DNA of 62,348 bases, counting the filler, from Sluysia triapertura (Eukaryota), in NCBI GenBank assembly GCA_046118255.1. It is 5 parts of 5 records of this genome, joined end to end, with 100 filler letters (N's around TTAATTAATTAA, not from the genome) between each part and the next. Parts side by side here need not be neighbours in the genome. Positions count along the whole stretch, not along the records: positions 51,254 to 62,348 come from JBJNIA010188954.1; 4 more parts are not named here. One strand, 5' to 3'. The position numbers and the translations under genes were made by a program. Of the stretch, positions 9,135 to 62,088 are shown one piece after another. The notes beneath the pieces were generated by a model. The model did no database searches. It saw only the letters and a list, made by a program, of their open reading frames with translations, and was not told the origin of the DNA. Numbering within the stretch: the stretch's first letter is position 1; every line of letters begins with the position of its first letter.

Positions 9135-9335
9135 TGTTTTGTTAGGTTGTCATCACAACCCTATAAAATCATTTACATAGTCATAATAACACTTTACAAT
9201 CATTGAAAAATTTTATTTTCCAAAAAAAGAAAATTCGCTTCTAAAAATAGATTAGACTTTTCTAAAATGTTCTAGAACGGTCCATCGATTTTCATTGACT
9301 GATGACTAGTATATAAACTAGCATCACTTTACTCA
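9135..9335 (+). repeat. Dispersed promoter/LTR-like repeat, homologous to 53170-53365 (-)
   Basis: TTGTTAGGTTGTCATCACAACC ... CCATCGATTTTCATTGACTGATGACTAG TATATAAA matches the reverse complement of 53170-53365. Confidence 0.6.
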
Positions 9336-12396: not shown

Positions 12397-12835
12397 ATGT
12401 TTTCTCTTAAATCTGAATGTCATGAAGAATCAATAAACGACAATGACGTTAACAAAGACAATAAAGTAAATGACAAAGTGGCTACCTGTCATAATGATGC
12501 TAACAATGAGTTTAAAGTTTATAAAAATGATCATTATAAAGTTGAATAATAAAAAGATGATAGCAATGATGTGAAGCATTATAAAGACGATAAGTATAGC
12601 GTTGAAGAATATAAAGACTACAATATTAATATTAATAATAATATTAAGCACTACAAAGATGATGATTGTAAAGTCAAACGTAACAATAATCATCACCACG
12701 AAGTTAATGTAAGTAAACAAGATGCTTACAAAGCTAAAATGATCGCCCTTTGCTCATTCTCCACAGATAATTATGGAGTGTGCATAAAGAATGGAGTTAA
12801 TTGCTGTTAAACCCATACGGCCTGCGAATCAGAAA
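12397..12835 (+). pseudogene. Unkempt-type CCCH zinc-finger pseudogene, copy 2, with HYKDD repeats
   Basis: ORFs 12319-12549 and 12571-12810 are one frame split by TAA TAA; it ends YKAKMIALCSFSTDNYGVCIKNGVNCC*THTACE; shares a downstream acceptor/exon AG|ATAGCGGA (12955) with copy 1 (7991). Confidence 0.6.
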
Positions 12836-18570: not shown

Positions 18571-19738
18571 ATTTATGCACGTTATAATGCGATAAGAATA
18601 AAACATAATTATGCTATGTAAAAATTATCTATTTAATTCTAGCTACTAAGTGTTTGAGATTGAAGAAATTTTATTGATCATTTGTTTTTCCTGACAAAGG
18701 AATTGCTCTTTTTATTTAACATCACCGCAGTCGAATCAAAATATTAAATGAACAAAGATGAAAATGTAAATAATTTTTGGTTTTGTTAATCGTTAAATAC
18801 ATGAATGATTAACGTGATACTTAATATCTAAGAAATTGATGGTGTATTTACAAAAGTTATATGATCATTTAAATTTAAGTTCATGATTTATATCAAATTT
18901 GTTGATTTTGTATTAAATCGTACCGGAATAATGATTTCTTTTATTCTTGTCAAGATTTACGAGTATGTTTTGTTCAAGTTGTAACAATAGTAACGTAATA
19001 AAAATAAATTTTAAATAATAATAGTATACACTTATGCATAAACAAAATGACATCTAGGACTTATGAGTAAATTAACAATGTGTCAAAGTTAATTTTGGTA
19101 TAAAGTTATTGAAGAATATTAAATTATTAATTGATAAATGTTCATTAAGATAATAATTATTAACATCGATTATTAAAATATATCTATTTTGGGAAATTAT
19201 TTTTTTGATACCAATTTAGGAAGTTATATTTCAGACGCCAGTTTGAATTATTTAATTTATGAATATGTGATAAATTTTGAGGTTTAATAATATGGTGTTT
19301 ATTTAAAATTTTGGATTCGAGTTCTATAAGTAATTTTAAAGAATTGGATTCGAGTAGTTTACAATAATCTACTATATGTTTCTTAATTGTCATGTTTTTA
19401 ATTAAAGCATTTTTATAGTTAATAGTAAGAAGATGGTTCGTATAATTTGGAATGTATGATTAAGTGATCGATATTTCGATGTAATGCTTGAGTTATTATT
19501 CATCATCATAGTGTTAAATAGAGAGGTTAAATAAAAGTGAAAATTGGCTGCTCTCAGATTTGGAAGCCCGTAAATGACATTTGCTAATATTAGTATGATT
19601 ATTTGTTTATAGTTACAAATTTCATGGAAGATTTTAAATATGATCGCTTTAAGTTTCCAGGTGATTTCTCCCTGCTATCCTTTATAAGAGACAATTAAGT
19701 TAATTATTGATGACGAGTTTTGAATAATTTTATTATCA

Positions 19739-20933
19739 TTAACAAAAGACATTGAATTTAATTGAACAAATTTTATTATATATGAACAAAGGTTTGAATT
19801 CTAAAAAATGTTCTTCTACTAGTTGGAAATTTTTCGATATTACACGTTGCTGCATTGCACAGATCCTAATTTTAAACACGTTATCTAAAAAGTAAAACAT
19901 TATCAATTTAAAATTAAACTTTACATATAATATCTGATTGTGAACTAACTTTATAATAGGTTTCCATGACTTCGTTATACATATAGCTGTTCGAGTAGTT
20001 ACATCTATAATCAATAATGTAGAAATGTATCGACCAGACAAAATTAAGTTAATTCTTTTAATTCGTGAAATATTGAAACATTTTACTATATCTTCTTTTA
20101 TTTTTGAAACTGTCCGTATACTTGACATCCAATTAAGAATCTTCACTGGAATTTTTGATAAACTAAGCATATATATAATATGACTCGCATCTAATGGATT
20201 TGATGAAATTACGAACTCGTCATAGACATGTATAGTGCTCAAGGAAGTTCACAACGAATGATTGATTTCATGGCTACAGATATTTTCTTCTCTAATATTA
20301 CGACTAAATTAATTTTTTCTTTGTGAAATAATGATCTATGCATAGTTGATGAAGGATCCTTTAACACGTTCAGAAATTTCTGTTTGAGATTTCCATTCAT
20401 GTAGACTAACACATTATTTTTGTGGAATTTACGAAGTATGTTCATGGAACTTTTGTCTTTATACAAATTTTCACCAGAATCATTGGATATATCATAGTAA
20501 TTTAATAAAAGAATTATAAACTTTCTAACAAAACGAAAGAGGTTACTTTTAATAGCGTCTGATGTTAAACAATGTATAATTAACTCATTTGCGTTCGTTC
20601 GTGTCGATATTTCAGCATGTGCCTGTTGTAATTCATCATGAGTAAGTGAAACTTTATAACTTCGATATGCATAATATTGGTTGCAGGCATTACTTAGACT
20701 GTTATGAAAGTCTTTATTGTTATAAGTTTCTATGTCATTATCCGATAAGTTTCTAGTTTTACATTATCCGATTGATTGGTTAAGATTTCACAAGTTAGAT
20801 GAAATTTTTGATGAACTTGTTCATTTGTTAATTTTCCTTGTTCTGGTTTAATCGATGAATTTTCAATATAAGAAGGTGACATTCGATGTACATCACTTTG
20901 CACGATATCTAGATCACTATAAATTGTAAATTT
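19739..20933 (-). pseudogene. Decayed ~390-aa ORF of unknown family
   Basis: The 75-aa ORF frame stays open upstream to about 20785; a small tandem duplication (TCGGATAATG..TAGAAACTTA) shifts frame to a segment starting after a TTTTTAG acceptor; a frameshift near 20240 joins the 167-aa ORF. Confidence 0.5.
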
Positions 20934-21109
20934 CTAAAAAATTTATCTATAAAAAATAAGATTTTAGATCAATTTCTCGATATTTAATTTGTTTGACGAA
21001 ATAAATGATAATCTAAGATTAATCTTTTTGAGCGATAATTAAGAACAATCTTTTAATTGTTATTTTTAGCAAATCTTGATTCTATTTTTGTTATTTTTTA
21101 AGCATGACG

Positions 21110-21285
21110 TTATCATTGGTCATCCAATCAGGTCTTTAATAATGATTAAAGCGAATGATAAGTACTGATTAGATGACGTATGATTTAAGTGAGATTATTG
21201 ATCTGATGATTGACCATCATCAGTGTTGGCACTTTAATGAAAAATATAACATATTGTGTCAACACTGGTGATGGTAGTAACCAGT
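21110..21285 (-). promoter_or_regulatory. Double-hairpin / CCAAT-rich repeat E, copy 3
   Basis: rc GGTTACTACCATCACCAGTGTTGACAC..GTGCCAACACTGATGATGGT plus ATTGGTCATCCAATCAG..CTGATTAGATGAC; upstream flank AAAGATCATGT..ATTTATGCGTTTT shared with 7140-7190. Confidence 0.5.
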
Positions 21286-24200
21286 TTAATCGACAATTGT
21301 TTAATTTGAAATTTTTTAGTATTTTAATGATTTGATAATAATAATAATGATAAAACGCATAAATCTTGTCTTTATAAATCTTAACTACATGATCTTTTCT
21401 TTCTAAATCTTGATTTCTTACATATTAAAATAAAATTGAGAAATAAAAACTATTGATATAATGTGAAGGAGCAACGGTAACGTGGTATACTATGCTTCAG
21501 CTATCGTTCTTGCTTCATCATAAGGAAATGAATTTATTAAAGCTGCATTAAATTTATTTTTGAAGATAAAAGGAATGATTTATGTTGTAAGTGAAATGAA
21601 GGATGTTAGAATAAATTCTTGAGATTTATTTAAAGTTTGTAGTTGAAAATAAGGTTTAAGCATTGGATATAATGATTTGGAAGGTTATAGTTTATTGAAT
21701 TTAAAGACAATTACAAAATAAATCTTGGCGTATTTACAATGTTGTAAAATGTTGTTAATAGTTATGTGTAGATGAAATGGGTTTGAATTAGTATAATTGA
21801 TTCGAGATTGTGACATAAATGTTTTCTACGTTTCAGATACTTGTTAATGTTGTTGAATGGTGTTAATGTGTTTGTGATTTAAATATTATATGTTGTGGTT
21901 GTGATTTGGTTTGGGAGGATGACTATTGAGTGAATGTTTGAGAGCATTAGACGAATTGTTTGAGATGAATATGTTGTTGAATTATTATAAATGTCGAATA
22001 TTGTTTATGATGAATCAGTTCATGTAATTCGATAGTGTGAGAAGTGATTGATTTAGATGTTATGTTTTGTGTGAACCACTTGTTGTAATTTGATAATGTT
22101 GAGTGTGATTGTGATTTAAATGTTGTGATGTTTTGGTGAATTTTGAATTATGGGTGTTGGCCACTACACGAGTTACGGTTAGTCCACAGGATTTTAGTTT
22201 TATTTGAAATGGAGGTCAATGATTTTCTTATAATTGGTTTTTCTTACAGTTGAGTTTATGAAAATCTTAATCAATGAAAGCTCGCTATAATTTTCCTCGT
22301 AACTAACAAATTTAGTAAATAGGATTTTTAAGACTTCTCTCTTATTTTAGTAGATTCTTATAAATAGTAGATTCTCTTATAATAGTAGATTCGTGTACTA
22401 ATAATCACGTGTATTCTTTGAAGAATGTTTCTACCGTATAAATTAAAATACACTTAAGTTCGAAAAATGATATTACTGTCGGTTAAATAATTTTTTAATT
22501 TTAGATTATAAATTAAAAAGATCCTTGTAATATCAACTCTTTAATAATGAACACTTGTAAGAATCTCTAAAGTTTATTAATTATAATGTGACAAATTACA
22601 AAAAACTATGTATAAAAATATAAAAGATAATAGCCAAAATAACCGATTATTATTATATAATCCTATTTATATTTTAATAAAAAATATTACAAGGACCGTT
22701 TTAAAAGATCTCTTTAAAAATTAATTACAGATTTTACTTAAATTTTATTTCAACTTAAAATATGAATAAACTTAGAATAAATCCAACTAACGATTGTTCA
22801 AATTTTAAACAAATTAATGATCAACGACTTTGTGACACACGATATCAAAATTCCATGCCTTAGTATATGTGTGTAAGATTATTTTGAACACATTAATTTA
22901 TATATGATTTGTGATCTCGAAAGGTCAAATGAATTTAAATTTGTTCATTTAATGTTTATTTCAAATTTATCATAAACTTTAAAATTTATTATTAAATTAT
23001 TATTGTGATTATTACTATTAATATAATTTACAAAATTTAATCGATATTACATATAATATAATTATTATTAGTATTTATTTTATATTTGCATAAACATACA
23101 CAATAAATATTCAGATGTTAAATTTAGATATTTGATTCAAAATTAGATTTGATATTCGACATTTTGAAAATTTATTTTGCTTGATTTGTCAAACATCTTT
23201 CGAAAGAAATTATTAGAATAATTGTTAGAGTATTATTCACCAATGAGTTGATTATATTAATTATGTTATTTTCATTTGGATATATTGAATATGCTGTGGT
23301 TTTTATAACACTTAACTTACGTCGCAATTCAGTAATTCTTAACTTACAGGTTATCTTAATTATTACTTCGATTCATTTATAAAATCTTGACTTATGAGTG
23401 TAACTAGACTGTACTTTACTGGCCTCCAAATAATGGCTCCTCTTTAATTATGATTTTAAATACTTTTAATGTAATTCTTTATTGTCTACTTGATCTTATA
23501 CTTTCTAAAATTATTCTTTAATGAAAATAAAAATCGAGAAAGTGCTTATATTCACCATGTACAATGTATTAAAAAATTTTTATAACAATATTCTATTACA
23601 CTGATACATAAAATCAGATTAAATAATAAAACAATGATTTAGAGTTAAAGTTAAAACCACATGGGTTTTTCATTTATTTTAATGCAGAAATTTAAATTTA
23701 AGTCTATTTTACCCATCATTAAATCAAGGAATTAAATATGTATTTATATAAATGATTTTGAGATGCTAATTATTATTACCTTACAACAAATAACTTAAAA
23801 AATTCATGAACTAATGGATAAAAATTGATTCCAGTCGAAAGCTGTTGTACTTAAAGGGTACTTAAATATCGGTAGTGTAAATATTAAAAGATCAAGATCA
23901 TCAATAAAACAAATTTAAAGAATTAATTAATAGAAATTAGTTAGTGCAAGTTTTAATGAATTAATTAATTAACATAGACATTAATCAGTGCAAAATTTTA
24001 ATTTTAAATTAGATAAAAAAATTACGTGTAATTATCTTAGATAGAAATCATTATTTTAGAAAATCGAATAATTATAGATGAAAATCGTACTTTTAAAACT
24101 ATTTTACTAAAATTTAATTAATGATTTTGAAAATTTGATTTTTTAATATTATATTGATAAATAGACACATATAAATAGCTGAACATTTTGTTAAATTGAC

Positions 24201-28479: not shown

Positions 28480-29385
28480 TTATTCAGAATGTCATAGTCA
28501 TAATCAATGTTATCTTCGTCAACTTCTTCTTTGTTAATACTTTCCTTCTCGCTGGATCGTCGCTCAGGTCGATGACATCGAGATCAACTGTTGAATCTGT
28601 GCTCAATCGTAGTCTCTTTTCTGGAGTCGTTTCTTCGACATTGGTAGTATGTTATATCGGTTTGTGATGTATGTTTTCTGGAGAATAAGGAAGTGGTGTT
28701 GAGAACTTATATTTATTGTATGTGTTATCAGCACAACAATCGTCTTGTATGTATGATGTTTCTAAATTAGAAGAAGAAGGTTTTTGCGATGTAGTTATGT
28801 TGTGTCAAAAAGTATCAGAAATAGCAGATAAAGTTAAAGTATTATCGACCTGCGGTAAAAATGAGGAATCCCTAGATATGATAGTGTCATATAAAGCCAC
28901 TAAGTCTTTTTCTAATTGTTGGCATTTAACCAATGGAGGGAAAGTATATAATAATTTCATAACTTTCCTAGTTTTAGAAATCTGCTTCAGTGAAGTTTGC
29001 GCTATTAAATTGGTGCATATATGATTAATGATCCCTTTAACCATCCGTATGGGATGTGCAGTGTTTTAATTATTATTTCTGGAAAAGGCGATACTATAAT
29101 CTTATTATAAATGGCAGCCAACCAATCTGAAATAAATATTTGGCTCTCTTTAAATGTTCTTCTTTCATTCTATGGTCGATAGTCAAGAATTTTTTATCCG
29201 AATTCTAGTCTTAATAGTACTTCTCCATTGAATAGTTTCTGATAGGGTATGGAGCACATTTTAAGTACATGATACCTAACGAAAATTACGTGGAGACAAA
29301 GATAAGATGTTTGTAGATCGTGTGTGTATGTTACATCTTCCTTCCAATTGTATAGGTTAATTTCATCCTTATATATATAATAATA
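28480..29385 (-). pseudogene. Unknown P(F/Y)GWLKG-family protein, decayed copy A
   Basis: YKDEINLYNWKEDVTYTH..YNKIIVSPFPEIIIKTLHIPYGWLKG/IINHICTN..ISKTRKVMKLLYTFPPLVKCQQLEKDLVALYDTIISRDSSF aligns with 56525-57829. Confidence 0.75.
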
Positions 29386-30573
29386 AACTTTAGTGATTTT
29401 GCAGTTTTTAAATTAAATTATTTTACGCAAATAAATCCTAACGACCGTCGTGAAGAAACGTTAAAATTGTTTAAAATTATATTTTGCAGTAAGGTAAGCT
29501 TAAAAGAAAATTTAATTAATTTAAATTAATATTTACGTAACAAAAATAATACGTACAGAATAATACAGATGATGATAATCCGACAAATTTTAATAATAAA
29601 ATTTCGACGATAATTTCCGTTAAATTTCCGTTGACTCCAGTTTATCATCTTCCAACAATTACTCGAAAATAATTGTTTTTTGACCAATAATCATTTTATC
29701 TTATTAACATAATACTATCAAAATTTAACGTGGTTATTATAAAAATGTGCACTGTTTGAATAATATATCAATTTAAATTAAACATAGAATAAATTAATTA
29801 CAAAACTTATAATAATTCTTAATACTTTAATGCGTTAACAGTATGTTAAACGTCGATTTCAATAACATATTTGATTTGGTATCTTAATTCGATCTATACT
29901 TTTATCATAAATAAACATTGCAACATGTATAAATTTAAATTTATATTACAGAAAAACTTTTTACGTTATGTATATCGATGTGTTTCGTAACATTTAAATA
30001 TTAGTAATACTGATAAATTTTAGCAAAGATATACGAAATCAAAGCAATTTTTAATTGAGTTAATTAATAAATGTACTTTTATATGTTCAAGAAAAAGACC
30101 TTATAGATGATTTTTTTTCTTCGTCTATTTCTTCCTTTTTATTTTAATTTAAATATTTTACAAACGTACCCAATTAACTCTCGTTTTGTTCTTATATTAT
30201 AAGCTATAACACTCATGTTTACTTTCATTTTAATATTTTAATATTCTTTGTTTTTTGTCTTTAAATATTTCATATTATGTTTTGTTGGTTACTTAATGAT
30301 AAAAAATATTGACATTTTCAAGCAATTTGTTGAAGCTTGTCTTTCTTTTGTATTAAAATGATTATAAATTCCTGAAATAGTACAAAGAAAATGTATTCCC
30401 AACATTCTCGTATCACAAACAGTATCTAACAATGGAAGAGCATGGCAACATTTAATAATTTGAATTACTGTTCTAAAACATTACAAAAATATTAGGTTGT
30501 AATTTTATTTTGCAGCTACTAAATTATTACTGTGGTTTCTTAACTCTTAATCTACGACAAAATATTTTCGAAC

Positions 30574-33402: not shown

Positions 33403-33507
33403 GACGCTAACGAATCAGTTCCATTGTTTGTAGCAGCAGAAAACGGTCATTTGGCAGCAGTCCAGTTATTATTATCATATGGTGCTTCGGTGGATTTACT
33501 TTCGAAA
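33403..33507 (+). CDS. Ankyrin-repeat gene, internal exon
   Basis: AG|DANESVPLFVAAENGHLAAVQLLLSYGASVDLLSK|GT, phase 0, no stops. Confidence 0.9.
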
Positions 33508-34087
33508 GTACATTTATGATAACATTACCAAATCATATTTCATATAAAACGTAATCATAGCCGTACTACTAAAATATGTGCAATTAGTAAAGTAAAGTTT
33601 AGATAAGTAACGTTTACAACAAAAGTTAACTTAAATAAACTATAATTTACAGAAATTTCTATTTTAAAATTGGTTTTCGAGACAACAAATATAATTGCTT
33701 TCAGATTTATTTATTTCCAGTTCAAGGTCATCGCAATTTTCAAATTGAGCATTATCATAAATATTATGTCATTCAATTTTAAATGATCATCAAAAATATG
33801 TTTTCATTATTTTTTAATTAATTAACAATTTTGTGTGTACATTCGAATATTGCATAGTGTTGGCATCAAAATTTCATCAAGGTAAAATCTCCATTGGATA
33901 ATATCATTAATCATCACACGTTGATTCTGCTTTCAGAATTAATTATTATCTATATTGAAATTTAATTATATTAATTATGAGAGTTTAGAACAAATTATTA
34001 TTACTTTTATCATTATCATATCACTATTATTACTGTTATTATTATTATTATTCTTATTATTATTATTAATTATTATTATTGTTTTAG

Positions 34088-34186
34088 AATATGACCACAC
34101 CTTTGCAGATTGCCTGTCAAAAAGCTTACAAGGATATAGTTAATGTCTTGCTTGATAATAATGCAAATATCGACGCTCAAAATGAA
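34088..34186 (+). CDS. Ankyrin-repeat gene, 99-nt internal exon
   Basis: AG|NMTTPLQIACQKAYKDIVNVLLDNNANIDAQNE|GTAAGT, the typical one-repeat phase-0 exon. Confidence 0.92.
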
Positions 34187-34303
34187 GTAAGTTTAGCTCT
34201 TCAAAATCAAAATATAATTATTACAATATTATATAATTATATATTTAGAAAAGAAATCTATTACTTATTACTTAACCTACCACTAAATGATTAGAAAATA
34301 TTA

Positions 34304-42215: not shown

Positions 42216-43886
42216 CCAAATTGGTAACAAGAATTTAATAATTAAATTAATTCTAAATTAGTAAAATGGTTACTAATTGTTGATTATCCTCTAAATTTCA
42301 ATATATTCGCAGAATAAATGAAAATTCCAATTTGTATATTAAAATCCTTGAAAATTCAATTAACAAGTACAATTTATCACCAATTTTCTTATTCAACACA
42401 AACATTTTTTAAATTATTTTTAAATTAAAGAAAACCACTCAATGCTATATTAAGTCAAATATATAACATGATTAGGTCTTCAACAATATCAATTAAAATA
42501 TCATTATCCACAGAAATTAAAGTCAGTAGCAATTGTATTTGTGTCTTGTCAAATGACTTTATTTTAACTTAATAACCAAAAAAAACAAATTGTAAAAATA
42601 ATTTGGGCAGGGAGTCTCCCATTATTCAATTAAAATCAACAGCTAAAAGTTAAAAGAATCAAAATTCAATCTTAAAATAATAGTTAAAAGAATAGTTAAA
42701 TAATAGAAATTCGTCTTTATTCTTTAAACACGATCTTTCTTCTTTTTAAAAACGAATATAAATATTTCTTGACATAAAAATTTCCTGATATTAAATTAAT
42801 TGAATTATTTAATTACTTAAATAAATTCTTTTTTCAAATATAAGTAAATGTCTTCTTAAAGATGTTAAAGAAACTCCGTCTTAATAGTGATGTTAAATTG
42901 GTTTTAAATGTGAATTTGATGTTTTTCACTGATGATAATGATTGAGTGTTAAAATATTGTGAAATTGACAAATTTTGAATTAATTTTAAGATGTATTTTT
43001 GAAAGCTTAAGATGTAAATTGTAATTCTGGTGTTGTGAAATTGTGGCTTAAATGTTTTGAATTTAATTTAATGTGCGTTAATGATTTTGATATTGTAAAG
43101 TTGTAAATTTACAATGTTTTGGAATGAGAATAGTTTTAGTGGATCTAAAAAAATAAAATATAGAAAAGGTTTTGATACTTTCTGAAAAGGTAATTGTACA
43201 ATGTTAACTAAAGTAATTTTGATTATAATGTTAAAAAATTATGAGTTAAAATGTTTTAAATGAATTTTTTAACTATACGTTATTAATCTGAAAGTAAATA
43301 TAATTTTAATATTATAAAATTATGAAATAAAAATGTTTTGAAACGTTTAAAATAAGGTTTTAGTGGATGTAAAAGGTAGAATGTAAGATGTTAGGAGATA
43401 ATATTTGTGTGATTTAATAATTTTAATTTTAAATGAGAGGTTATCCACCATAGTAATAAATAAATTTATAAGAAATAACACCTTAGATCCTTTAAATGAG
43501 TTTACTAATGGTATAGGGCCTACAATGTCATAAATTTAGCGATGTACAGAAAGATTTGTGTGATTATATTTTTGAATACGATAGTATTGCATAGACAAAC
43601 GATTGGAATGAAGCTGAGAAAATTAACTGTAGTGTTAAAGAGATTGATAATAGACACACAAAATTGGCAAGAATTTTTAAATGCTTTTACTGAAGAGATA
43701 GCAAGTAAGTATTACGAAAATATGTTTAATTTAGCAGACAAAACCCTATGAAACTGTTTATGAAAACTCATGCGCATAGATATCTGAGGATAAATTTAAA
43801 AATATAAAGACTATAAAGAACCTGAGGGCGTAAGAAATTCATAACTTATGCAAAGTCTGGATGACAATTCAATCTCTTCTCTATGT

Positions 43887-43998
43887 GTCGAATTTGTCCA
43901 ATTATTTGTCGAATTTGTCCAATTATTTGTCGAATTTGTCCAATTATTTGTCCAATTATTTGTCCAATTATTTGTCCAATTATTTGTCCAATTATTTC
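43887..43998. repeat. Compound tandem repeat (21-bp and 12-bp units)
   Basis: GTCGAATTTGTCCAATTATTT x3 followed by GTCCAATTATTT units. Confidence 0.9.
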
Positions 43999-44605
43999 TC
44001 TATTTGTCGAATTTTGTAAATTAAAAATGTTTGTAATTGATGGCTTTTGTGGATTTAAATTTTTGTTAGGAGAATAAACATTAATTTCATTTATTATGGA
44101 TGACATAATTGAGCCATTTTCGTGGATGGTATGCAAAAAAATGATTATAAACATGTCAACAAATAAAACACAATTTGGAATAAGAATAGAGAATAAAATA
44201 TTAATCAAACTTAGTTATACTGTATAGAAAATTGAATGGTGTGGTGTCACAACCGTACGAATCATTTTGTTGTTAAATTCATCCATTAATAAGCAGACAT
44301 AAGCACAAATACAATTCACTCTAATCTCATCCATATCATAATATCATCATATCTCGCCAAACTTATAAATTCGTACGACTAAATCATTAGCATGCAAAAG
44401 TTTTATTATTTATAAATTAGTTGTAGCATTTCTGGCCGATGTCGCTTTCTTCCTCCTCATTTGCAGCACCTATCAAATTTTAATTTTTCATATGTATATT
44501 AGAAAAGTTTATACTATTTGTGATTTGTTCCAAAATTTAAAATTCCTTTTTTTGAGAATTCGTTATTTTAATATTGAATATGTCTTATAAAAGAAGATTT
44601 TTTGT

Positions 44606-45770: not shown

Positions 45771-46388
45771 ATGACCGATGAAGTTGAAGGTAAGATAAAT
45801 CATTTAGAATTTACTGCAGTATATCTTAAAGAAAAGTTTACTCAAAATTTGCCAGCAGATTTAACCACTGGTGTTTTAAAGAAGTTATTAGAATGAAAAT
45901 TAAATGTTCCCTTGCTAAATCATAAATTAATCTTACGTGGGATACTAGCTGATAATGTTACTCTACGTGAATTAAAGTCAACGAAACCTTGTAAAGCAAT
46001 TCTTGCTGGTTTATCTCAAAATGAAACTGAACGTATATTTAAAATGGAAGCTGATGTTGAAGCTGTTTTGTCTGCTCATTGGGATAAACTAATTAAAAAT
46101 ATTATGATATTTGAGACACGTCATATGAATACAAATGTAAATAAAGCATTTACTTTTGACGTTATTATGATATATCATGCTAAGGTAATTAAGACAGAAA
46201 CCTTCGATTATGGAGCTCTGCAAACGCAGATTAATCTTCGAGACGCGCAACTTTATGTTCTTGTCGAAGTTCTTGCCAGTAAGACTTTTATCGATTCAAA
46301 TTTTAATTTTTCATCAACGACTGATGTCATACTTTTTATGGATTATTATTATTTTTATGAAAACTTAACATCTGTGCGAAATAGATAA
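45771..46388 (+). pseudogene. Intronless ubiquitin-like (UBFD1-type UBL) domain gene with unrelated C-terminus; one internal TGA
   Basis: MTDEVEGKINHLEFTAVYLKEKFTQNLPADLTTGVLKKLLE*KLNVPLLNHKLILRGILADNVTLRELKSTKPCKAILAG, in frame with the 158-aa ORF. Confidence 0.7.
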
Positions 46389-48336
46389 ACCGAGTCTTTA
46401 TTTTGTTTTATATTCTTTAATTAAAAAGTTCATTTTTGGCCTTAAACCTATGTTTTGTTTTGAATCTCAAACATTCGGTACGGACCTTAAGTCCAAGCTT
46501 TTTAAATTAATTTTAATTAATTTGATCAATATATTTTTTAAATTATTATCATTTTATGTTAAGCACCTTCTAGTTATTGATTTTTTAACACAAACTTTCC
46601 AATATGATGCCACTCGACCATTGCAGGAAGAAGTACTAGAAGCACTGTTTCAGTGTCTTTATAACATTTTTATTATTCCGCAATATTTGAATGTTCTTCG
46701 ATTATTAGTTTTTTTTACTGTTATAATTGTTTCGACACTTATTTGATTAATAATTATTTAAATGATTCTTGCCCTAATGATTTAATGCAGGACCTTAAGT
46801 CCTTCTTTTTTGCAATTCGAATTTAAATTTAATTTTCAATTTTCTTAAAATTTTCCGCCCAACGGCCATTATAAATTGCACGGCTTTAACAGTGATAGTG
46901 AAGACTTTACTACAAGTTCTGTTGGCTTATATAGATACTTAGCTGTATAACGTTCTGGTAAAAAAATGAAAATAATAATGATGAAAATAAAACAATAAAA
47001 ACGATGTTAATTATTACCATGATTAATTACGCCATTATCTACGATTGTTATTTGCCTAATGTTTGAATTGAGTGTAAGTGAAGAAAAGTGCAAAGTAAGA
47101 GTGAGACGTGTTATTGTTATTAATAATTTGTTAAGAATTAAAACTCGATATTGTTATAACGTGTTATGATGGATGCATTTAATGTAATTTTATTAATTGT
47201 TTACTTAATTTGTGAAGATTGCTTAAGTGGGTTATTTCTGTTTTATATGGATGGATAGCGCAGAGCGCATGGGTCAAGTATCGATGTATATGGTGTAATT
47301 TGTTAAGTAATCAATGTCGGTGTTACGAGTATCAGTTTCTGTAGAAGAAAGTGATTAAGATTGTTGGAATTTTGGAATTTTATGCTGATCGAATATTGGT
47401 TGCACCCTAAATGTTTTGGTCTTTGTTGAAGTGAAAACCCTTACATAATAAGTCTGTGCAAAAGAAATGCATTAACTTTTATAGAAATTGTGGGATCTGG
47501 ATTTATTTTTGTGTTGAATAATGTATTGATTTGTATTTGTTCTTTAAATGTGGCTTTGTCTTAGGTTTTGAGTTTAATATCCGTTTTTGTAAAATTATTA
47601 TTCTTAGATGTTGAAGAACGATCCAGGTTTATCGTGAATATTAGTTTGGTGAGAAGAAATATTTGTTTTAACTTATCAATTTAGGTTGAGTTAGCTTGGT
47701 TCTAGTTGAAGTGATTTTTGATGTGCTGTTTTGATTTGGAAATTCTATTGGAGTTCGTAGCGAAATATTCCTTGGTTTTCATTCCAGCGAATTTGATTGA
47801 GATAAACCCTGAAGCAGGATCGTCTAGGATCCGAGCATCACAGGCTTGCGCTTCTGATTACGCAGAATTCGTTTGAAGTCCTCATAGAAGCTTATTTGTT
47901 ATTGTTCTAAGTAGGCATTTTGGGTTGTGTAGTTTTATTTTTATTGACTGCTTTTAATAAGGTTGGCTTTAGAATTTTTGAGTTTGTAGAACTGGAACCA
48001 TAACCTAGGATTTTATTATTTTTATACATAGGTGTAGTTTATGGGTAAGTTTTGCTGTTTTATCCGTTGACACTATAATATGTATAGAGTTTTATTCTTC
48101 AAATATGTAATTTTCTTAGTTTATTAAGTTGTTGAAAACATAAATAACAGTTGTATTTAAAGTTTATAAGATTAATATTTAAACTAGCATCCTGACACCA
48201 ATCATATAGGTGGTTGATGTTCGAGCTCTCATTATTTTTTAATTTTTCGATTAGCTTTATACATATAAGAAAATTTTATTTAAGTTTTTATGATTATAGA
48301 TTAAATTAATATTTTCACGAAAGGTTAATTTAGTTA

Positions 48337-52359: not shown

Positions 52360-53169
52360 GTTTGTTATATTGATTTTTATTTTCGAAGTATGCCCGAGTT
52401 TATAACATATAATAAAAATAAATATTTTTGTAAATATTTTAGCGAATTTTATTTATTATATTTTTTGGGATTTTGTATTTCTATGTTGAGATAGCCATAA
52501 TATAATTTTCAAAATGTATTGTTTTAACACTTGTTTAGAAAAATTCAATGTATATTTATATTTAATGTTTATTTTGTTTGTAAAAATTGATTTTGTTTGT
52601 TTTCTTAACTACAGTTATAGGGCAAAATAGATATTAGCAAGGGCTGGTTATACATTAAATGACTACTTTAGTAATTATTTTTACTCTGTAATAATTAGAG
52701 TGTTTTATTCTTGCCATCTATAGCGCAATGTAATCTACTCCAAATTATATTTTTGGTAAATTTATTATTTCAAATATTTCACTAATACTTTTCGAATTTA
52801 ATTGAATATAATTAATAACAAAGAACTCAAAAATAATATAAGGTAAATTATAATAATAATTAAAATTTAAAGTATAAGTATTATAATTAATAATAATAAA
52901 ACCTTTTCAGGTCTTTAATTTTGAATATCCCTAATTAAATCGGGATGGGAAAATAAATTACAAAGAAATTTTGAGTAAGATTTTATTATTTTGACTGCTA
53001 CAGCCAAAACGAACTTACCGAAAAATAACTAATAATTAAGAATAATCCAAAGTCCTAGAGATGTATCGGAGTATGAATTGGGTAATTGACCTGATCGGAT
53101 GTCTTGAAGAATAAATTTAAATCGAAGAAATAGCAAAATTTTTTTAAATGATGAATGACTAATTTTTGT

Positions 53170-53365
53170 TATGTAAACTGAACTGATGCTAGTCATCAGC
53201 CAATCAAAATCAATGGAAATTTCTTGAAAATTATAGAATATTCACGAATTTACGACTTCTTTTTTAGAAAATTATTTTCTTTTTTGGAAATTAACAATTT
53301 TAAATGGTTTCTTTTATGAAATTTGATAATTTTAGGTGGTTGTCACGACAACTTAACAAAATTTA
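53170..53365 (-). repeat. Dispersed promoter/LTR-like repeat, homolog of 9135-9335
   Basis: rc TTGTTAAGTTGTCGTGACAACC..CCATTGATTTTGATTGGCTGATGACTAG. Confidence 0.6.
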
Positions 53366-55230
53366 GAATGTAAGAAATGTAACAAGAGAATCACAATTGT
53401 TTAATGTGAACGTTACTGAAAATCGTCCGAATCATATTGGTCTACATCGGAATGTAGGGCGTCGGTTGGCTGGAACCATTCTCAGAGTTATCTAAATCGA
53501 CTCCTGGAAAGAGGTGTCACTTATTAGTTTGTTCGACGAGACTCTGGATATTAGTAGTTTGGTTGAGAAGGAAAGAGGGCGTGGAAAGCGTCTAAAAATT
53601 GATCAGGAGTTTCTGATTGTGTAGAGTTGACAAGTTGGGGGAGAATGGGGATTAGAATAAGATGGAGATGACAACTGAGGGAATTAAAAGAAGAGCAAGA
53701 GGTGCAGGCAGGTTTTGAGGAAGGGAAGATGGGTCATTTGCCTTAATATAATCTGCTGGCTTTTATACGGAAAGATTTATCCTAGCAAGAAGTCTAGAGG
53801 TCAGTTCTCCTAATAAGCATTTCTTATACCTATGAAGTTGGCGTCCTATTAGGATTTTTCAAAAAATTAGTCACGTAGTTGTTTAATTGGAATAGCAACG
53901 TTTTACGGTACCTATTATGTTAATTCAATTAAGAAGTTGTACTTGAGCTATGTTCTAGTCAATAATATAAAGATTAAGCCAGCCTTTTTACGGTCAAGCA
54001 AAAAAACAAAGTATTTTAGAATATTAAGCTAGCCTTTTACGGTCTAGCAAATAATAAAATATTTTAAAAATTAATAACAATACGTCTAGACCCATAAAAA
54101 TATATTATCTACAACTAAAAGTTTATACAGATAAAATTAATTCACAATAAAGAAAAATAATTATAATAGTAATATTGATTTTAGATGAATACTTAAGATT
54201 ACGTATCTTAATACTTAAATGTATTTTACGTTAAGATTGACCTAGCATGTAAGGTCTAGGATGAAAATGCTAATAAGTTTATGTAATAGTTTAAATTTCT
54301 CCTATGTAAAGTGAGAAATATTATAAACCTATTAAAATAATCTTATTCATGCATGGATTTAACATCTTCGTCATATATGATCATAACAATTCCTTGTCGA
54401 TTTTTTGTACGTGAAATAATTCCAAAATTTTTGTTCTACTTATAAGAATAGTTTAGCGGCCATGTTTATTTATTAATTGAAACGAAATTGATTAGTTAAA
54501 ACAAAAATGCTTAAATTAAAAGTATTTTATTTTTATTTTATATACCAAAATTAAATTAAAAATTTCATTTTATATTTACAATTTATAATTAAAAAATTTT
54601 TAAAGCAAAAGTATTTAAATTTAAAATTATTTTATTTTTATTTTATTTACAATTTTTGGTAATTTACAAGTTTTAGCATTTATACAATTATATACAATTT
54701 TATACACAATTTTCAGTATAATAGAAGTATGGATTTTATATAACTTTTCTACTCCAACAAATCGAGCAACGAAATAGCATTCTTAATGAGGTCGATACAT
54801 GGGTAATAAAGGGATATGAGATGTGCGTTTATAAGTGTTAGAAGATATTCTCTTTAGATTTTAGTTTGGAATGTTACATATTGATCATTCGAATTCGATG
54901 ATTAAATTATTGGATAAATCCAGACTTCCGATTGAATATTATTGAAAATCTTATAAGTACAATATCCTGAAGATAAATTATAATTAAAATAAAATTATTC
55001 ATTACATATTATTATTTACATTATTATTTTAGACTTAATCACTGTAGGAATAAATTTGACTTTATTTGAGATTCTGAAAAAAATTGTATTCGCAATTCTA
55101 TCTCTGATATCAGAGACTAGTTAGAAAAACAACTTCACACATAACAAGAACTTATATCAAGGTTTATAAAATCATTCGATATGTTCAACTTTTTCTAAGT
55201 CTGAAACAATTATGATATTAATAAATGTAC

Positions 55231-55692: not shown

Positions 55693-55752
55693 GATTTTGA
55701 CTCAGGCGAATGCTTGAGTTTCGAAAATGTAACGATTTTAAGTCTATTTTGA
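55693..55752 (+). other. Motif C hairpin
   Basis: GATTTT GACTCAGGC gaat GCTTGAGTT TCGAAAATGT..GATTTTAAGTCTATTTTG. Confidence 0.55.
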
Positions 55753-56524
55753 GGCAAACTATTGATGCCGAAATTAAAAATAAATATCCTACTTATTCAT
55801 GTCATATGAATATCGAAATAGAAATGTAGTCCACTATAGTTCCAGAAATTGACGACAATAGTAATTTTCTCCATAAAGATTTATGATAGTTTTTATTGTT
55901 GACACGGTAGTTTTTTCACGAAAATTATAAAGAGTTTTACCGTTGATAATAGTAGTTTTTTCTCCGCAAAAGATAATCTTCCAGTTAATTGTTAGAAACT
56001 TATAAAGTTATTTATTTTTTTGTTGCCTTCGCTCATGAAGAGATCGCCTCTATTTATATGCAAATAAATGATTTATAATAATTTACCAATAAAATATTTA
56101 TTTTCCGAATCCGGTATTATAAATGATTTCGAAATATAATGTAAATACTTAGTTCAAGGTTTAAATCACTAAATAATACAAAAATTTTAAATAAACAATT
56201 ATTTATATAATATACATATTTAATAGTTTACTTTTGTAAAGGTCAAATTTCAAAATTAATTAAAATTTTCGAAGTTAATTAATGTATATTTTTAATTTCA
56301 CAATTTTTAAATATTTTAAAATTCTTTAATTACAATATTTATACAACATTTAAATTATAAAATTTACATTAAAATTTTAAATTACAATATTTACATTACT
56401 TCTCCGTTAGGGAAGAATCGTCTCGAATCGAATATAATAAAATCATATAAGTCAATATAGTAATATAAAATCACAATAAAAATTGAATGTAAACATCAAA
56501 TCATCAGAATAATGCATAAAAACG

Positions 56525-57829
56525 TTAATTGTCTAAATCGACGTCACTATCGTCATCCAAAGGTGACGGATAGGCAGGGCTTGACATTGATTAATATCGT
56601 CCATTTTTCCATGGTTGAAAGAACGTGTTTCCTCCATACGGAATGTGAATTGAACTTGGAGATGGACATCGAACCGTAGGCTGTTTGGTTAACGGAGAAA
56701 CTGCAGGTTTTATATATTTCGCGGGCGATGATGTAGATGGTAATGATGATTCAGGTACTAACGATGGTATTGATGATGATGGTGTTAGTGGAGCCAGGAT
56801 AGCATTACTAGAAATAGAAAAGAGTGAAGGAGGAGGTGCAGAACAATTAGAAATAAAGGACAAGTCCCTCTCACGGATCAGATCTAACAGTGAAACCAAC
56901 TCAAAAGCCATCCTTGAGCAGGTCATACGGGGTGGTACGGTATATAATAATGTGAAGGTCTGTCGTCCACGTGAGATTGCGTCATCAGTGCGTATGATAG
57001 AAGGTTGATGTTAGATAAGTTAATAAACCTTTAAGCCACCCAAAAGGCAAGTCAATATTCTTAATGATAAAACATGGGTTTAGAGATACCATGATTTTAT
57101 CGTGCAAATGATCTAGTAAGAAGGGGCGGACATCATCGATATCCTTAACCCCAGAGATGTCCGAATCATTGATCTCCTGGATATCTCTCACAAAATTCTT
57201 TACACGTAACCGCGGCTTAATATTGATGTCAGTATGGAATTGCTTTGAATATGGGGTACAAGATAGATGTGTTAAATGCGGGCGGTCAAGGAAATCGAAG
57301 GCGTAAGAGTATGCGATAAAAACTAAACGATTTTCATCGTAGGCAGTCATTGGAGGAATATGAGTGAAAGATGTTCCGTTCTGCCATCGCGGCATATTTA
57401 CAGTGTCATCTTTGTACAAATTTGGGAGAAAAGACTGGAAGATGGACGGAGGTAAAGGAGAAAGCAACGCAATCGAAGTGGGATACTCTGTTGCCTCTAC
57501 TACAACATTACACTTCTCATGCAAGTTGGTAATGTGTAATGATGTGAAACTATGGACACGAGTTAGAAACGGTGCACCGCTGTCCATCAAAGTGACCTTC
57601 ACAACACAAATAGAGAGAACTTATAGATTCTGGGACTTGTGAAAGGCCATCGAATGAAATGAATGACGACTCAGGTTTTAACGAAAATACATGAGTTGCG
57701 TGATTCAGATTAAGCTCAGATTTTAAGGTGATAGATGTTGAGACGGAATCACAGAAAAAGGCAGGAGTAATGCTTTCGTGACAATATCGTGACAATTTTT
57801 TTCTGGTTTAATATCCGGCTTGAATGTGA
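56525..57829 (-). pseudogene. Unknown P(F/Y)GWLKG-family protein, copy B (~430 codons, two frameshifts)
   Basis: Strong acceptor TTTTTTCTCTCTTTCTTTCAG ending at 57830; ORFs 57550-57795, 56985-57602 and 56591-56926 join by frameshifts; Ser/Pro-rich tail reads through TAA to ..DDDSDVDLDN*; homologous to 28480-29385. Confidence 0.75.
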
Positions 57830-57945
57830 CTGAAAGAAAGAGAGAAAAAAACCATACATATAAAAATAAAAATTTAAATAAGTAGGCTATTCTTTATCTA
57901 AAATTCATTCATTATTATATAATACTAAATAAAATAAATTAAGAA

Positions 57946-58380
57946 CTAATTTTTTCTTTTCAAGAAATGATTAAAAGGTTTCAGAACTTTAGACATTTTA
58001 GCTTCCTTTTCCTTATAAAAATGTTTTAATTGACGCCTTCGTTTATTGCGTCTTTGCGATTTGGACAAACCTGACGAAAAGTTAGGGGAGGTCTTACCCC
58101 TCCGTTCTTACTAAGACTGATAAATATCAATACCGGGTTCCTCGGAAGCATCCGTTATATACTTAACGGTAAACGTATATGATCGTCGGAAGGTACGTTT
58201 ATAGTAAATGTCACATTCAAGAATAGTTGCTCTACATAATGGGCAAACAGGCAGAGGGAAAGGAGAAGACTCAAAAAGATGATACAGACAAAAGAAATGA
58301 AAACGGTGAAAGCAAGGGGAAGTCTTAGCGAAGTATTTTCAAAGAGAACGAAGACATATGGCACACGTAGAATACGACAT
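57946..58380 (-). pseudogene. RING-finger gene (viral ICP0/IE-style) with basic NLS-like tail
   Basis: caacaATG: MSYSTCAICLRSL*KYFAKTSPCFHRFHFFCLYHLFESSPFPLPVCPLCRATI..; TGA at codon 14, TAG TAA at 58108-58113, then in-frame QRRNKRRRQLK. Confidence 0.8.
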
Positions 58381-58758
58381 TGTTGGGTGCTTTAACTAAA
58401 ATAAAAAATTAACAAATATATACGGTTATAAATATGTAGTATTAGAAATATTAAAAAATCCTAAACCTAGATAAAAATTAAGTAATATTTTAGTTAGTCA
58501 TATGCACGATCCTTACTATTTATAATAACATAATTAATATTAATCCTTATGATTTTAATATCGCATGTGACCCTAAGTGAATGGGAGTGCCTTCACATAT
58601 GGTCAATTATGCAATATGTATTAAAATTTATATGAAAAAATGAATCCTATGCCTAATAAACAAGTAGAATTTTGGAATAATAAAATTAATTATTAACGTT
58701 ACTAAAGAAATTATTGTCAAAATATAGTTAATTGTTATGGTGAAATTATTGTTGGATT

Positions 58759-59246
58759 TCAATATTCAATATTTTCCTTGCTTACATTTGTATTTGTAGT
58801 GTTCGAACTTATATTCATGTTTATGTTAGAAAACATATTCGTAAAATTGTTATTGATTTTAGACGTTTTCTCTGATTTCGTATCCGAATCATTTTCGTAT
58901 TTATCTATAACTGGTACTTGCACAACATGATATCTGATTGTTGGCCAAAATCCTTTTGAATTGTTTTTCTTAATATCCAAAATTTGATAAACATGAGTTT
59001 ATTATTCGGAATATGATATAAACGAATGGTATCGTTAGGCAATATCATTCCGTAACGTAAACCGTTAGACTGTTCGTATGCAATTATCAATGTATTATTG
59101 TATAGTTGGTTATGAATACGTACAACATTTCCGAAATAACGATGGATGATCATTGGAAATTCAATTACTGTTGATGATTGTTGGAATGGTTTAGTTCTTA
59201 TCTTATAATACCATATTAAGATAGTCCTTGAGTCACTCTGAGTCAT
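58759..59246 (-). pseudogene. Virus-like hypothetical protein (113-aa and 73-aa ORFs, probably one frameshifted gene)
   Basis: ATG overlaps the upstream stop (ATGA at 59243-59246); frames overlap at 58905-58980. Confidence 0.45.
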
Positions 59247-59773
59247 ATTCCCAGTTCCATAGTTATCGTTACACTAATTAGTTGATATTCAGCAAGATCA
59301 ATGCAGGATCTAAACAAGTAGAAATCCTGTTTACTTGCCCTTACTTCAATTTCACACCAATCCATTATACAACATCTTATTTGAACGGAAAATGACCTAA
59401 TTTTATCTATCAATATTCTAGCGTAGACATCTTTCTGAGTATATACTAAAATTATTCTAGGTGTGGTATTTTCTGATAAGTAACTTGTACTTGATATACA
59501 AGATAGATACATATCAATATCGTAGATTTTACTTGAGTCATTTGTGGCATATTCATAAATTGGAGGTGAAAGTATTGTTTTACTTTGTGGAGGAGCGTAA
59601 TTGTTTCGATGTGGAACTGTATACACGTCGTCATTATTATCATTGTTATGCGGTAAATATGGATATCGGCATTTATTCGAAACAAACATAATAATAGTCA
59701 ACACCACTATGGCTAAATCGATTATGAACAATATTGTTGCTACGATTAATATTACTGGGCTGGCTCGCTTCAT
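59243..59773 (-). CDS. Virus-like hypothetical membrane protein, 176 aa, N-terminal TM helix
   Basis: Long ORF in AT-rich DNA; hydrophobic VILIVATILFIIDLAIVVLTIIMFV; ATGA overlaps at both ends. Confidence 0.6.
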   Translation of the reverse strand: MKRASPVILIVATILFIIDLAIVVLTIIMFVSNKCRYPYLPHNNDNNDDVYTVPHRNNYAPPQSKTILSPPIYEYATNDSSKIYDIDMYLSCISSTSYLSENTTPRIILVYTQKDVYARILIDKIRSFSVQIRCCIMDWCEIEVRASKQDFYLFRSCIDLAEYQLISVTITMELGI

Positions 59774-60096
59774 AATGTTTCCAATATTGTTAGTTGTTTC
59801 CTGGTTCCTTTTAGTGCGAAATGTAAATATTTTTCCGAAAGATATATTTTCGTAATTATATGCCTATCTTCTGTAGGTAATAAATCGGAACATACCGTCA
59901 CTGGATAATTTAAATTATCGTTAATATAATTTTCGCATATTATCCATGTACTAAAATTAAGTCTAACTGGTTTTAGGCATGCAAATCTAGCGTGAATATT
60001 ATTTATTGTTTTAACTTTTACTTCGTTATCTATATTATAAAACTCGAAATGTTCTGTCTTAAAAGAGTATTCATGACATTGAGTTACTGTGATCAT
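59770..60096 (-). CDS. Virus-like hypothetical protein, 108 aa
   Basis: cacaATG start; its TGA overlaps the next ATG (59770-59773). Confidence 0.5.
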   Translation of the reverse strand: MITVTQCHEYSFKTEHFEFYNIDNEVKVKTINNIHARFACLKPVRLNFSTWIICENYINDNLNYPVTVCSDLLPTEDRHIITKIYLSEKYLHFALKGTRKQLTILETL

Positions 60097-60258
60097 TGTG
60101 ATTAAAATTAAGGGTATGAGATTTTTATTATTCCTAGGAACCTGTACTTTCCTACCTATTTGAAATAAATAGAGTATGGTCCAAAGTATATATATAGTAC
60201 CGTGAAGATTAGTAATATTATAAAGAATTTATAAGAGTGAACTTATCTAATTCGTATA

Positions 60259-60662
60259 TTAAAGTAGATTCACCTGTATCGCAACTTGTATGTCCATTCT
60301 ACAAAATGATCTAGACATCATTGTTCCTTTTTCAATATCAAAACTTTAATTAAAAGATTTTAAGCTTACTACAAAAGTTTCTTGAGCGACGACATTATGA
60401 TAAATTTTTCTCTCGTACTCGATTGATACTTGTTCACATGTTTCATCTGTTAGTACGTTTCCAGCAATTCTAATATTATAGATAATTTTTTCATTATTTC
60501 TTACTCTCAGTTTATCACCTTTTACCAATCCGATATATCCAGTTTCAAAAGCCTCTACAATTATTTGGTAAAATTTTAATTGGTTTTAATACATATGGTA
60601 ACTCTATTATCGATGAATGGCTATGATGGCCACAATACCATATTGCCGCTGATCTTAAACAT
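60259..60662 (-). pseudogene. Decayed virus-like ORF
   Basis: 60-aa ORF extends upstream (IIVEAFETGYIGLVKGD) and through TAA into SFDIEKGTMMSRSFCRMDIQVAIQVNLL*. Confidence 0.35.
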
Positions 60663-62088
60663 GTTATTTTTCCTGTATTATATTTTCAATAAAAATTTAC
60701 GAAAAATAACATTGAGTATCGATAATCTTTGAGCTTATTATCGGATTTTAATAGTATGAAAGATGATAATAACAATAACATGTGTTAGTTTAATATTTTA
60801 AAGAGATTAAAGATTAATAGTAATAATAAGTGAAAATAATAATTTACGATTACTTAAACAATTAATATTTATTATTTTAAAAGTTAAAATTTTGTCGACA
60901 GAGATATGGGAGTTGATATAATGCTATGTAATAATGTATGTCGAGCGTGTTCTAATGTGTTCAAAATGAAATTCTCTGAGATATTGATGATGTTTGTAAT
61001 TGTGACACCACAATTAGGTATTGATTGATCCAGAAGGTATATATTATGTTAAAGCAGTGTTTGTTTTACTTATTCTATTAGGTTGATTAAAAGATTAAAT
61101 TTTTATTGAATTTCTTTCAATAAAATTATACATCTAGATAAATTAAAGACATGTGTTTTACAGATCTACTACTAATATCTACAAGTATACTTACTATTCG
61201 TATTTAAATTGATTGTATGCAATCATGTATTGTCGCATTCAAAATGGATTACTTAATCAATTTATACAAACTATCAAATAAACTTGTTACCCATGACATC
61301 TGAACCTGAAATTTTTTCTACCCTATTTTATTTGAAATATAATTTTCGTGTGTCATTGTATTTTTAAGCCGTAAAGTTGTCTTGGAAGTAAGCACTTAAG
61401 TATTAGTAAAAAATTAAAAGCGAATTAGTCTTATTTCTAGTTGTTAATTTCAAGTCAAAATCATATTAATAAATTAATGTAAGTATCAAATCATTTAATA
61501 CCTTTTTGTAAGGAACTTATAAATTTTAAGTAAAAGTTATCACATTAAAAATTGTTAAAGATGATGACTAAATGGAGAGTACAAACTACAGAAGAACAAA
61601 TAATTTGAGTCCGAAAGAAAAGTTGATCCATTGGACGTCACTAGAATTGATGACCAATTGAACATAAGTATTTCGTAATTTTATTTTTTCATAGATGTGA
61701 ATTAATTACATCTTTTTAGAAGAAATTGAAAATTTTTTTATGAGGACTAGTACAGCGACTATTTGATCAATATAAATGAAAATTCAATATTAATCAAAGA
61801 ACGCGTCATGGAGCAGATCAAATTTATTCTCATTTAATGGTTTCTTCGATAGAAATAAGACATCGGAAGCACTTCTTAGGTATCACGGAAATCACAACTA
61901 ATAACCGAACGAATAAGTAACTTATCTATCATTCTTTTGATATGTTTAAAATGGTAAATGAAACTATTTTATGAAAATCAACAAGGAAATAATATTGACT
62001 AACCATCAACAACAAAGGACATTTAATTTTTTTACTTAATTTTTATACTAGATTTTTTCTAGTCTTCAGAATAAAAGATTAATTATAA

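Follow-up and report, generated by a model that had tools for sequence, protein, structure and literature searches.

Exonuclease-like genes, fusogens and cargo in known and proposed invertebrate retroelements

Precedents exist for element-encoded genes of the kind considered here, in rotifer LTR elements, Terminons and Burro. Bdelloid rotifer LTR retrotransposons (Juno and Vesta) and Terminons are described, in the available text of the sources, as carrying a DEDDy ORF3 with intact catalytic residues (PMC5408684, PMC6431247), and the Burro giant gypsy elements of planarians as combining env with ubiquitination-related cargo (PMC6431247). Envelope proteins of gB type, related to the chuvirus glycoprotein, are widespread in metazoan Ty3/gypsy elements and in mosquito BEL/Pao elements, according to the accessible parts of PMC13524379. 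Inactive DEDD proteins that retain RNA binding are reported from piRNA pathways in the sections available of PMC5408684, and TREX1 and PML restrict retroelements without need of catalysis (PMC10123124).

The gene at the locus examined here was formerly functional and exists in multiple copies; its centre is DEDDh-like, and it follows env-like and RING genes. The gene is most likely an accessory pseudo-exonuclease, not a core gene of a new DNA virus.

The window and its host

The window, the whole stretch of 62,348 nucleotides analysed from Sluysia triapertura, joins five contigs through N-linkers. Copy A of the gene lies on contig 5 (51254-62348) and copy B on contig 3 (27491-39621). GC is about 0.24 in the window and ranges from 0.24 to 0.26 in the genome. 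Because an intact RBX2 gene and ankyrin-repeat exons occur in the window (Table 1), the host is read as an AT-rich animal.

Weak matches to BTB (4436-4582, minus strand, E 0.0037) and to a CCCH zinc finger (12553-12807, plus strand, E 2.8e-4) are probably host exons. Adjacent overlapping open frames of 70-175 amino acids, without Pfam match, occupy 19184-21424 (minus) and 45897-46746 (plus) and are possibly other decayed elements or divergent genes. A short tandem repeat (43846-44010) reads as IIGQ repeats on the minus strand. Contigs 5 and 1 have a dispersed repeat in common (53186-53361 and 9137-9312; 70% identity, E 5e-16), of high depth in a sequencing run designated X1; considered as a part of the element, it was set aside as a separate dispersed repeat. 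The ends of contig 5 (51254-51623 and 61984-62348) lie in very deep repeats, at about 30,000 in run X1, which are unrelated to the finding. The tRNA search of the window returned none, and the Rfam search no match.

Table 1. Coordinates of the features discussed, counted along the window
Feature	Position	Strand	Remarks
RBX2 (RNF7/SAG)	2767-3069	-	Intact, apparently single-exon; E 9e-38 versus human RBX2
Copy B	28480..29385	-	Contig 3; more decayed; without the N-terminal part of A; tail with KRLR, VDLD and VIDLS
Ankyrin-repeat exons of a host gene	33403-33516 and 34088-34291	+	Contig 3, same contig as copy B
Repeated block with copy A, RING and env	55694..60873		Summed X1 contig depth 79 to 69,447 per bin; left limit uncertain
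Copy A, whole	56525-57829	-	Contig 5
Copy A, acidic end with VDLD	56525..56590	-	Stop between tail and acidic end
Copy A, C-terminal helices of the domain, then Ser/Pro/Thr-rich tail	56594..57010	-	45% identity to B over 42 aa; aligns with the ends of P0001 and P0002
Copy A, 211-codon open frame with most of the DEDDh-like domain and PFGWLKG	56988..57620	-	Best-supported part about 57057-57239
Copy A, piece of the N-terminal domain	57553..57807	-	57759-57661 versus P0001 residues 35-65: 14/31 identical, score 47, nulls 28 and 33
Splice-acceptor-like tract (pyrimidine run, then CAG)	57830..57851	-	Directly before copy A; 14/14 pyrimidines
RING-H2 finger gene remnant with basic tail, stops inside	57946..58398	-	zf-RING_2 E 6.7e-5, 23.5 bits, below the cut-off of 27.3
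Overlapping open-frame pieces (152, 206, 122 and 79 aa), no assigned family	58762..60228	-	One with a strong transmembrane segment
Chuvirus/gB-type (class III) fusion glycoprotein fragment	60349..60585	-	PF24664 Monjiviricetes_fusion, E 7.2e-4

Two decayed copies of one gene

A reading made earlier from the DNA letters (the sequence-only reading) had described a protein family present twice, on different contigs, and all the peptides that it quoted are found, on the minus strand of contigs 5 and 3. The motif P(F/Y)GW(L/V)(K/R) has exactly two occurrences in the six frames of the window. In-window tblastn links the copies over 57419-57021 versus 29376-29026 (28% identity) and 56977-56852 versus 28981-28856 (45%), with E-values of 1e-8 to 3e-7, and blastn gives no match between A and B at the DNA level. 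Similarity at the protein level despite a different base composition, also claimed in that reading, is thus borne out (GC 0.41 in A and 0.33 in B, with 0.26 in the flank). A profile built solely from P0001 and P0002, two database relatives of copy A, scores 186 on A and 100 on B for a null maximum of 43, and detects no third copy in the window.

Over 74 aligned codons, A and B are identical at 0.58, 0.69 and 0.24 of first, second and third codon positions, pS is 0.92 versus a pN of 0.37, and different codons are used at 23 of the 35 identical residues. Because of the codon-position identities and of pS relative to pN, the proposal that the two copies diverged as working genes under purifying selection and broke afterwards is supported. 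The frame changes just after GWLKG in both copies. Further breaks are found near 57610 in copy A, together with a stop near 56592, and at 29100-29230 and in the tail in copy B. Tiny introns were considered as the cause of the shared break and rejected, no GT-AG pair of suitable size being seen by eye at the break in A.

The tails of both copies are rich in Ser, Pro and Thr (47% in A, 29-34% in B) and contain VDLD (at 56542 in A and 28588 in B), as had been noted, though they do not align to each other. P0002 ends with a similar CDLD, and P0001 is without such an end. The KRLR and VIDLS words in the tail of B look like motifs for nuclear import and SUMO binding. No detectable copy includes the third VDLD of the window. 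The stretch 53400-54070 (minus strand), richer in GC (0.42), contains VDLD as well as a TATA-like word and a run rich in pyrimidines; tried as a third copy on the strength of its VDLD and a GWL-like word, it was rejected, being not above the protein null and having a DNA score of 159 where shuffles average 180. It could represent a further accessory remnant or a piece of an LTR.

An orphan family of four members

An exhaustive HMMER search of 1,835,955,588 representative proteins with the 211-residue frame of copy A yields two relatives, P0001 (365 aa, E 1.3e-11) and P0002 (176 aa, E 7.1e-5), both unnamed singletons, on contigs of 1,964 and 720 bases. P0001 aligns with A over residues 35-327 (73/269 identical), N-terminal piece included. 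With copies A and B, the known members of the family number four. Word-index protein searches confirm none of 73 candidates for copy A and, when longer proteins were sought that contain the env piece, none of 29; with an alignment as query, one of 2,868 candidates is retained, P0001 itself. IMG/VR, scanned with copy A and env and also with two alignments and two frames of no assigned family, yields no confirmed relative. The same holds for JGI metagenome scans (0/220 and 0/528 stretches confirmed), and tblastn of P0001 against phages gives one match at E 2. A GTDB candidate (L109), the one of 41 that passes tblastn, was rejected as a chance match: it is interrupted by a stop and lies on the strand opposite an unrelated gene for a 312-aa membrane protein. 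Among the sequencing runs listed as matches there is no RNA run, and run X2 accounts for a small share only. In the literature accessible to the search, no description was found of the family, nor of an inactive DEDDh gene beside a gB-type env and RING.

A DEDDh-like centre with altered motifs

Three sequence tests place the core of this family, called unrecognised in the sequence-only reading, among DnaQ/DEDDh exonuclease derivatives. Searched against PDB sequences to a limit of E 10, a four-member profile matches one entry only, 2p1j, an exonuclease of PolC type (E 0.002). An hhalign comparison with 26 DEDDh proteins from bacteria and phages reaches 71.5% probability (E 3.6e-5, 54 columns), where controls (one reversed and 39 block-shuffled) do not exceed 0.6%. 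A DEDDh profile matches P0001, P0002 and A separately and in the same register, with P of about 1e-4 to 1e-5 (about 1e-4 for A), and does not match the short included stretch of copy B. In NCBIfam, the third test, A, P0001 and P0002 match DEDD models only, again in the same register: the 3'-5' exonuclease model NF005289 (E 0.0031) and PolC (E 0.19) for A, and NF005906 for P0001 (E 0.076) and P0002 (E 0.082). The three tests share one central stretch of about 54-68 columns and are not fully independent. ESM Atlas features also lead to DEDDh exonucleases, with scores below 0.9 that make this a lead only. Pfam RNase_T (PF00929) matches no member, and single-sequence PDB searches find nothing for A, P0001 or RING and one unrelated match for env (E 1.6). 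Structure prediction, a check proposed in the sequence-only reading, is uninformative: two AlphaFold models have pLDDT values of 32 and 33, and Foldseek and other fold searches give no match. On balance, a DnaQ/DEDDh-derived fold at the centre of the family is probable.

In the well-aligned ExoII region, HN...D is kept in 20-23 of the 26 references, while all four members have (S/T/A)P(D/F)P or SLNP in its place; N-x3-D, kept in 23 of 26, is likewise replaced in 4/4. For ExoI, no D-x-E is present on the matching strand in P0001 and A, where alignment confidence is low, and P0002 and B do not cover the region. No H-x4-D is seen for ExoIII, in a region aligned with low confidence across a 19-column gap. 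Should the fold be DEDDh-derived, catalysis has probably been lost. Judged by its motifs, the family is predicted to be of DEDDh-like build without the acidic metal-binding motifs, and would fall outside the catalytic DEDDh exonucleases.

Neighbours of copy A and the repeated block

On the minus strand, the order is env fragment, membrane-protein remnant, RING-H2 and then copy A. The acceptor-like tract before copy A is the only site of the window, on both strands, with 14/14 pyrimidines, and four sites have at least 13. In the RING-H2 remnant, the first two Cys are encoded by the in-frame piece ahead of it, the tail has 36% K+R and an acceptor-like tract precedes the ATG. Upstream, the frame at 59246-59863 contains a transmembrane segment (hydropathy 3.2 over 19 residues), and the frames of this part have no significant match in Pfam, NCBIfam or PHROGs. 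The env fragment comprises 79 residues and matches its profile weakly (18.1 bits versus a cut-off of 27; profile positions 114-181 of 653). Its identity with PF24664 had been guessed before the scan; as one of 351 Pfam queries, the match would otherwise be marginal. Stops interrupt RING, env and copy B as well.

Exact pieces of contig 5 occur in run X1 at depth 10-28, so the run comes from the same or a very close organism. The contigs of X1 matched to contig 5 number 7,831, of which 5,726 are <95% alike, and the block belongs to a repeated, divergent family. Summed depth, which is not a copy number and comes from one run, amounts to 79-1,087 over A and 1,115-69,447 over 57914-60873, and falls to 33-76 in the next three bins beyond 60873. 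As this depth is uneven, env may be common to, or part of, a larger family than A. The joint occurrence of env and A is seen in this copy alone, bridging X1 contigs being few and short-sided.

All 86 frames of contig 5 of at least 36 residues (low-complexity ones dropped) were without match to RT, RNase H, integrase, gag, pPolB, ATPase, protease, capsid or terminase. On contig 3 (86 of 95 frames, low-complexity ones likewise dropped) there was no RT, RNase H, integrase, gag, pPolB, ATPase, capsid or terminase, and no RING or env beside copy B; 150 further frames from the other contigs gave no retroelement or DNA-virus core match. A short frame at about 30360-30440 (plus strand), some 1 kb upstream of B and on the opposite strand, reads by eye like what we take to be an LTR-retrotransposon integrase remnant. 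Contig 5 has no LTR pair and no long direct repeat; its inverted matches are of low complexity only, with no convincing TIRs. A short purine run followed by TG lies near 56395-56405 (minus), 3' of copy A, and the same 10-mer is found inverted at 52429-52438 (plus), 4 kb off and near a depth edge; the pair might mark where an element ends, or be a coincidence of AT-rich DNA. Taking 52429/56395 as LTR or TIR ends was rejected, as were the long-range X1 joints, with 7/8 position pairs at or below shuffled nulls and the eighth marginal.

Nature of the element

The reading that we favour, with confidence near the midpoint, takes A and B as paralogues, now decayed, of a gene that served an env-bearing multi-copy element as an accessory. 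That element would most probably be an LTR retrotransposon, a Ty3/gypsy errantivirus or one of the BEL/Pao group, whose env is of the chuvirus/gB type. As the searches gave neither an RT, integrase, pPolB or capsid match nor an LTR, we infer the class of the element. An accessory role agrees with the location of the gene, which follows env and RING and has a splice acceptor just before it. The present copy would lack the 5' part of the retrotransposon, and a spliced subgenomic mRNA made through the acceptor at 57830 would express the gene of copy A, the RING gene being expressed likewise. The predicted protein has an N-terminal domain, a DEDDh-like domain without metal-binding acidic residues, a disordered Ser/Pro/Thr tail and an acidic end. 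By analogy, and more tentatively, it might bind 3' ends of RNA or cDNA without cutting, and so might shield the RNA or cDNA of the element or serve as a decoy or scaffold that counters the small-RNA and exonuclease defences of the host; the RING ligase could then be a second counter-defence gene. Several observations count against the favoured reading. Contig 5 gave no RT, RNase H, integrase or gag match and no LTR pair. The env piece (~80-120 codons) is far deeper than A (69,447 versus 79-1,087), so env and A may sit in different repeats, nested here; the env and RING matches are both below the Pfam cut-offs; and copy B is without env or RING neighbours. A bolder version, an undescribed enveloped endogenous virus lineage of an invertebrate in which a gB-type env is followed by spliced accessories (membrane protein, RING-H2 ligase and a dead DEDDh protein with a KRLR/VIDLS tail as in copy B) as an anti-silencing module against piRNA- and SUMO-dependent repression, is rather improbable.

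The sequence-only reading had seen in the family a core gene of an undescribed DNA virus or giant mobile element. The multi-copy, virus-like mobile element is supported; the DNA-virus core gene is not, no capsid, pPolB, terminase or ATPase remnant having been found in 86/86 contig 5 frames. A Polinton/Maverick-like or other integrating animal dsDNA virus, with gB-type fusogen, RING and membrane proteins and with the pseudo-exonuclease still as an accessory, is unlikely. Contig 5, as a decayed partial copy, also gave no protease match and no convincing TIRs, scans of IMG/VR with the element proteins gave no relative, and the very deep env coverage would better suit a high-copy retroelement. This is weighed against the compact, co-oriented small genes with acceptors, RING and membrane proteins, which are typical of DNA viruses, the fusogen of nematode Polintons (available text of bioRxiv 10.1101/2023.08.22.554363), the RING and exonuclease genes of malacoherpesviruses (PMC5552708) and the fact that no retroelement core was found on contig 5 either. 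A negative-strand RNA virus origin is still less probable. Here, an endogenised and amplified nucleoprotein-like gene would be involved, as in arenaviruses with their NP with C-terminal DEDDh, RING and glycoprotein, a gene set that the block resembles (available text of PMC3509680). ESM Atlas ranks arenavirus nucleoprotein first for P0001 (0.76) and third for A (0.88), the fusion family is named for negative-strand viruses and P0001 comes from a contig of 1,964 bases. However, both Atlas scores are below 0.9 with few shared features, neither Arena_nucleocap nor Arena_ncap_C matches, and the PDB profile search up to E 10 finds PolC and no arenavirus NP. In addition, the RING is of the cellular H2 type, all the genes share one orientation and have splice acceptors, and no remnant of an RdRp turned up.

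That the gene is not an ordinary multi-exon host gene agrees with its two relatives in 1.84 billion proteins, the repeated divergent block of X1 and the env and RING neighbours. A fast-evolving host family, of Maelstrom/EXD1-like dead DEDD proteins of small-RNA pathways, with pseudogenes lying beside repeats by chance or captured by them, is improbable. The canonical acceptor before A, the absence of viral neighbours around B and the inactive DEDD derivatives in animal piRNA biogenesis (available text of PMC5408684) would suit it. Yet the gene is an intronless stretch of ~1.3 kb with GC 0.41 in a genome of 0.24-0.26 where host genes are split by introns (ankyrin exons), A and B are both broken while RBX2 in the same window is intact, the two protein relatives are singletons on short contigs, and divergent X1 contigs cover the very bins of A. 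Pfam gives no Maelstrom profile match, and the family alignment has no conserved Cys/His corresponding to the Cys-His-Cys zinc motif of Maelstrom as described in the part of PMC5408684 available. Assembly errors in genes that are in fact intact might be suspected from the frame change at nearly the same place in A and B and from the other X1 contigs that differ in length near that place. This is very improbable: exact, gap-free X1 pieces (56608-56911 and 57461-58032) span the break near 57610, although X1 may be the source sample, and stops occur in RING, env and B while RBX2 is intact.

An orphan family of four known members gains a probable fold and a context. If the favoured reading is true, env-bearing elements of invertebrates have accessory cassettes comparable with the ones in complex retroviruses, and these cassettes include a proofreading-type exonuclease reused in inactive form. 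The known cargo (active DEDDy, GDSL, RING, BIR) would then be extended, and P0001 would be a naturally intact candidate for element-encoded counter-defence. The finding gives no evidence of a new DNA-virus class.

Comparison with known systems

With the DnaQ/PolC-type DEDDh domain (PF00929; 2p1j; NF005289, NF005906), the family shares pattern and spacing from the third strand, via two helices, to the ExoII strand. It differs in the replacement of HN...D of ExoII in 4/4 members and in showing no DxE or H...D at the expected places, where alignment confidence is low, and it adds an N-terminal domain, a Ser/Pro/Thr tail and its own P(F/Y)GW motif. Maelstrom/EXD1 and the C-terminal exonuclease of arenavirus NP are comparable, in the sources as far as available, in that a DEDD fold is reused without, or apart from, DNA proofreading, and they provide a model for a dead domain acting by RNA binding; unlike these, the family has no Pfam or PDB-sequence match to Maelstrom or arenavirus NP.

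Among elements, errantiviruses with HSV/gB-type env and BEL/Pao elements with chuvirus glycoprotein resemble the present block in the Pfam family of the fusion protein and in being multi-copy in animal genomes. They are described as gag-pol-env or gag-env-pol, whereas gag and pol were not found here (accessible parts of PMC13524379). The main text of that source is without the words 'exonuclease', 'RING' and 'DEDD', and its readable supplements without 'exonuclease' and 'DEDD'. Burro elements are likewise env-bearing giant LTR elements of AT-rich animals with ubiquitination and apoptosis cargo and accessory ORFs, but their cargo is mostly in one polyprotein, their env, of gypsy/F-like type, is placed between gag and pol, and the available text mentions no exonuclease (PMC6431247). 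In the DEDDy ORF3 of rotifer elements and Terminons, as described in the accessible text of the sources, a DEDD-superfamily exonuclease also forms a 3' accessory ORF of an invertebrate retroelement. The rotifer protein is RNase D-like, of DEDDy type, intact and encoded in place of env; in contrast, the present one is DEDDh-like, apparently dead and located downstream of an env remnant and a RING gene.
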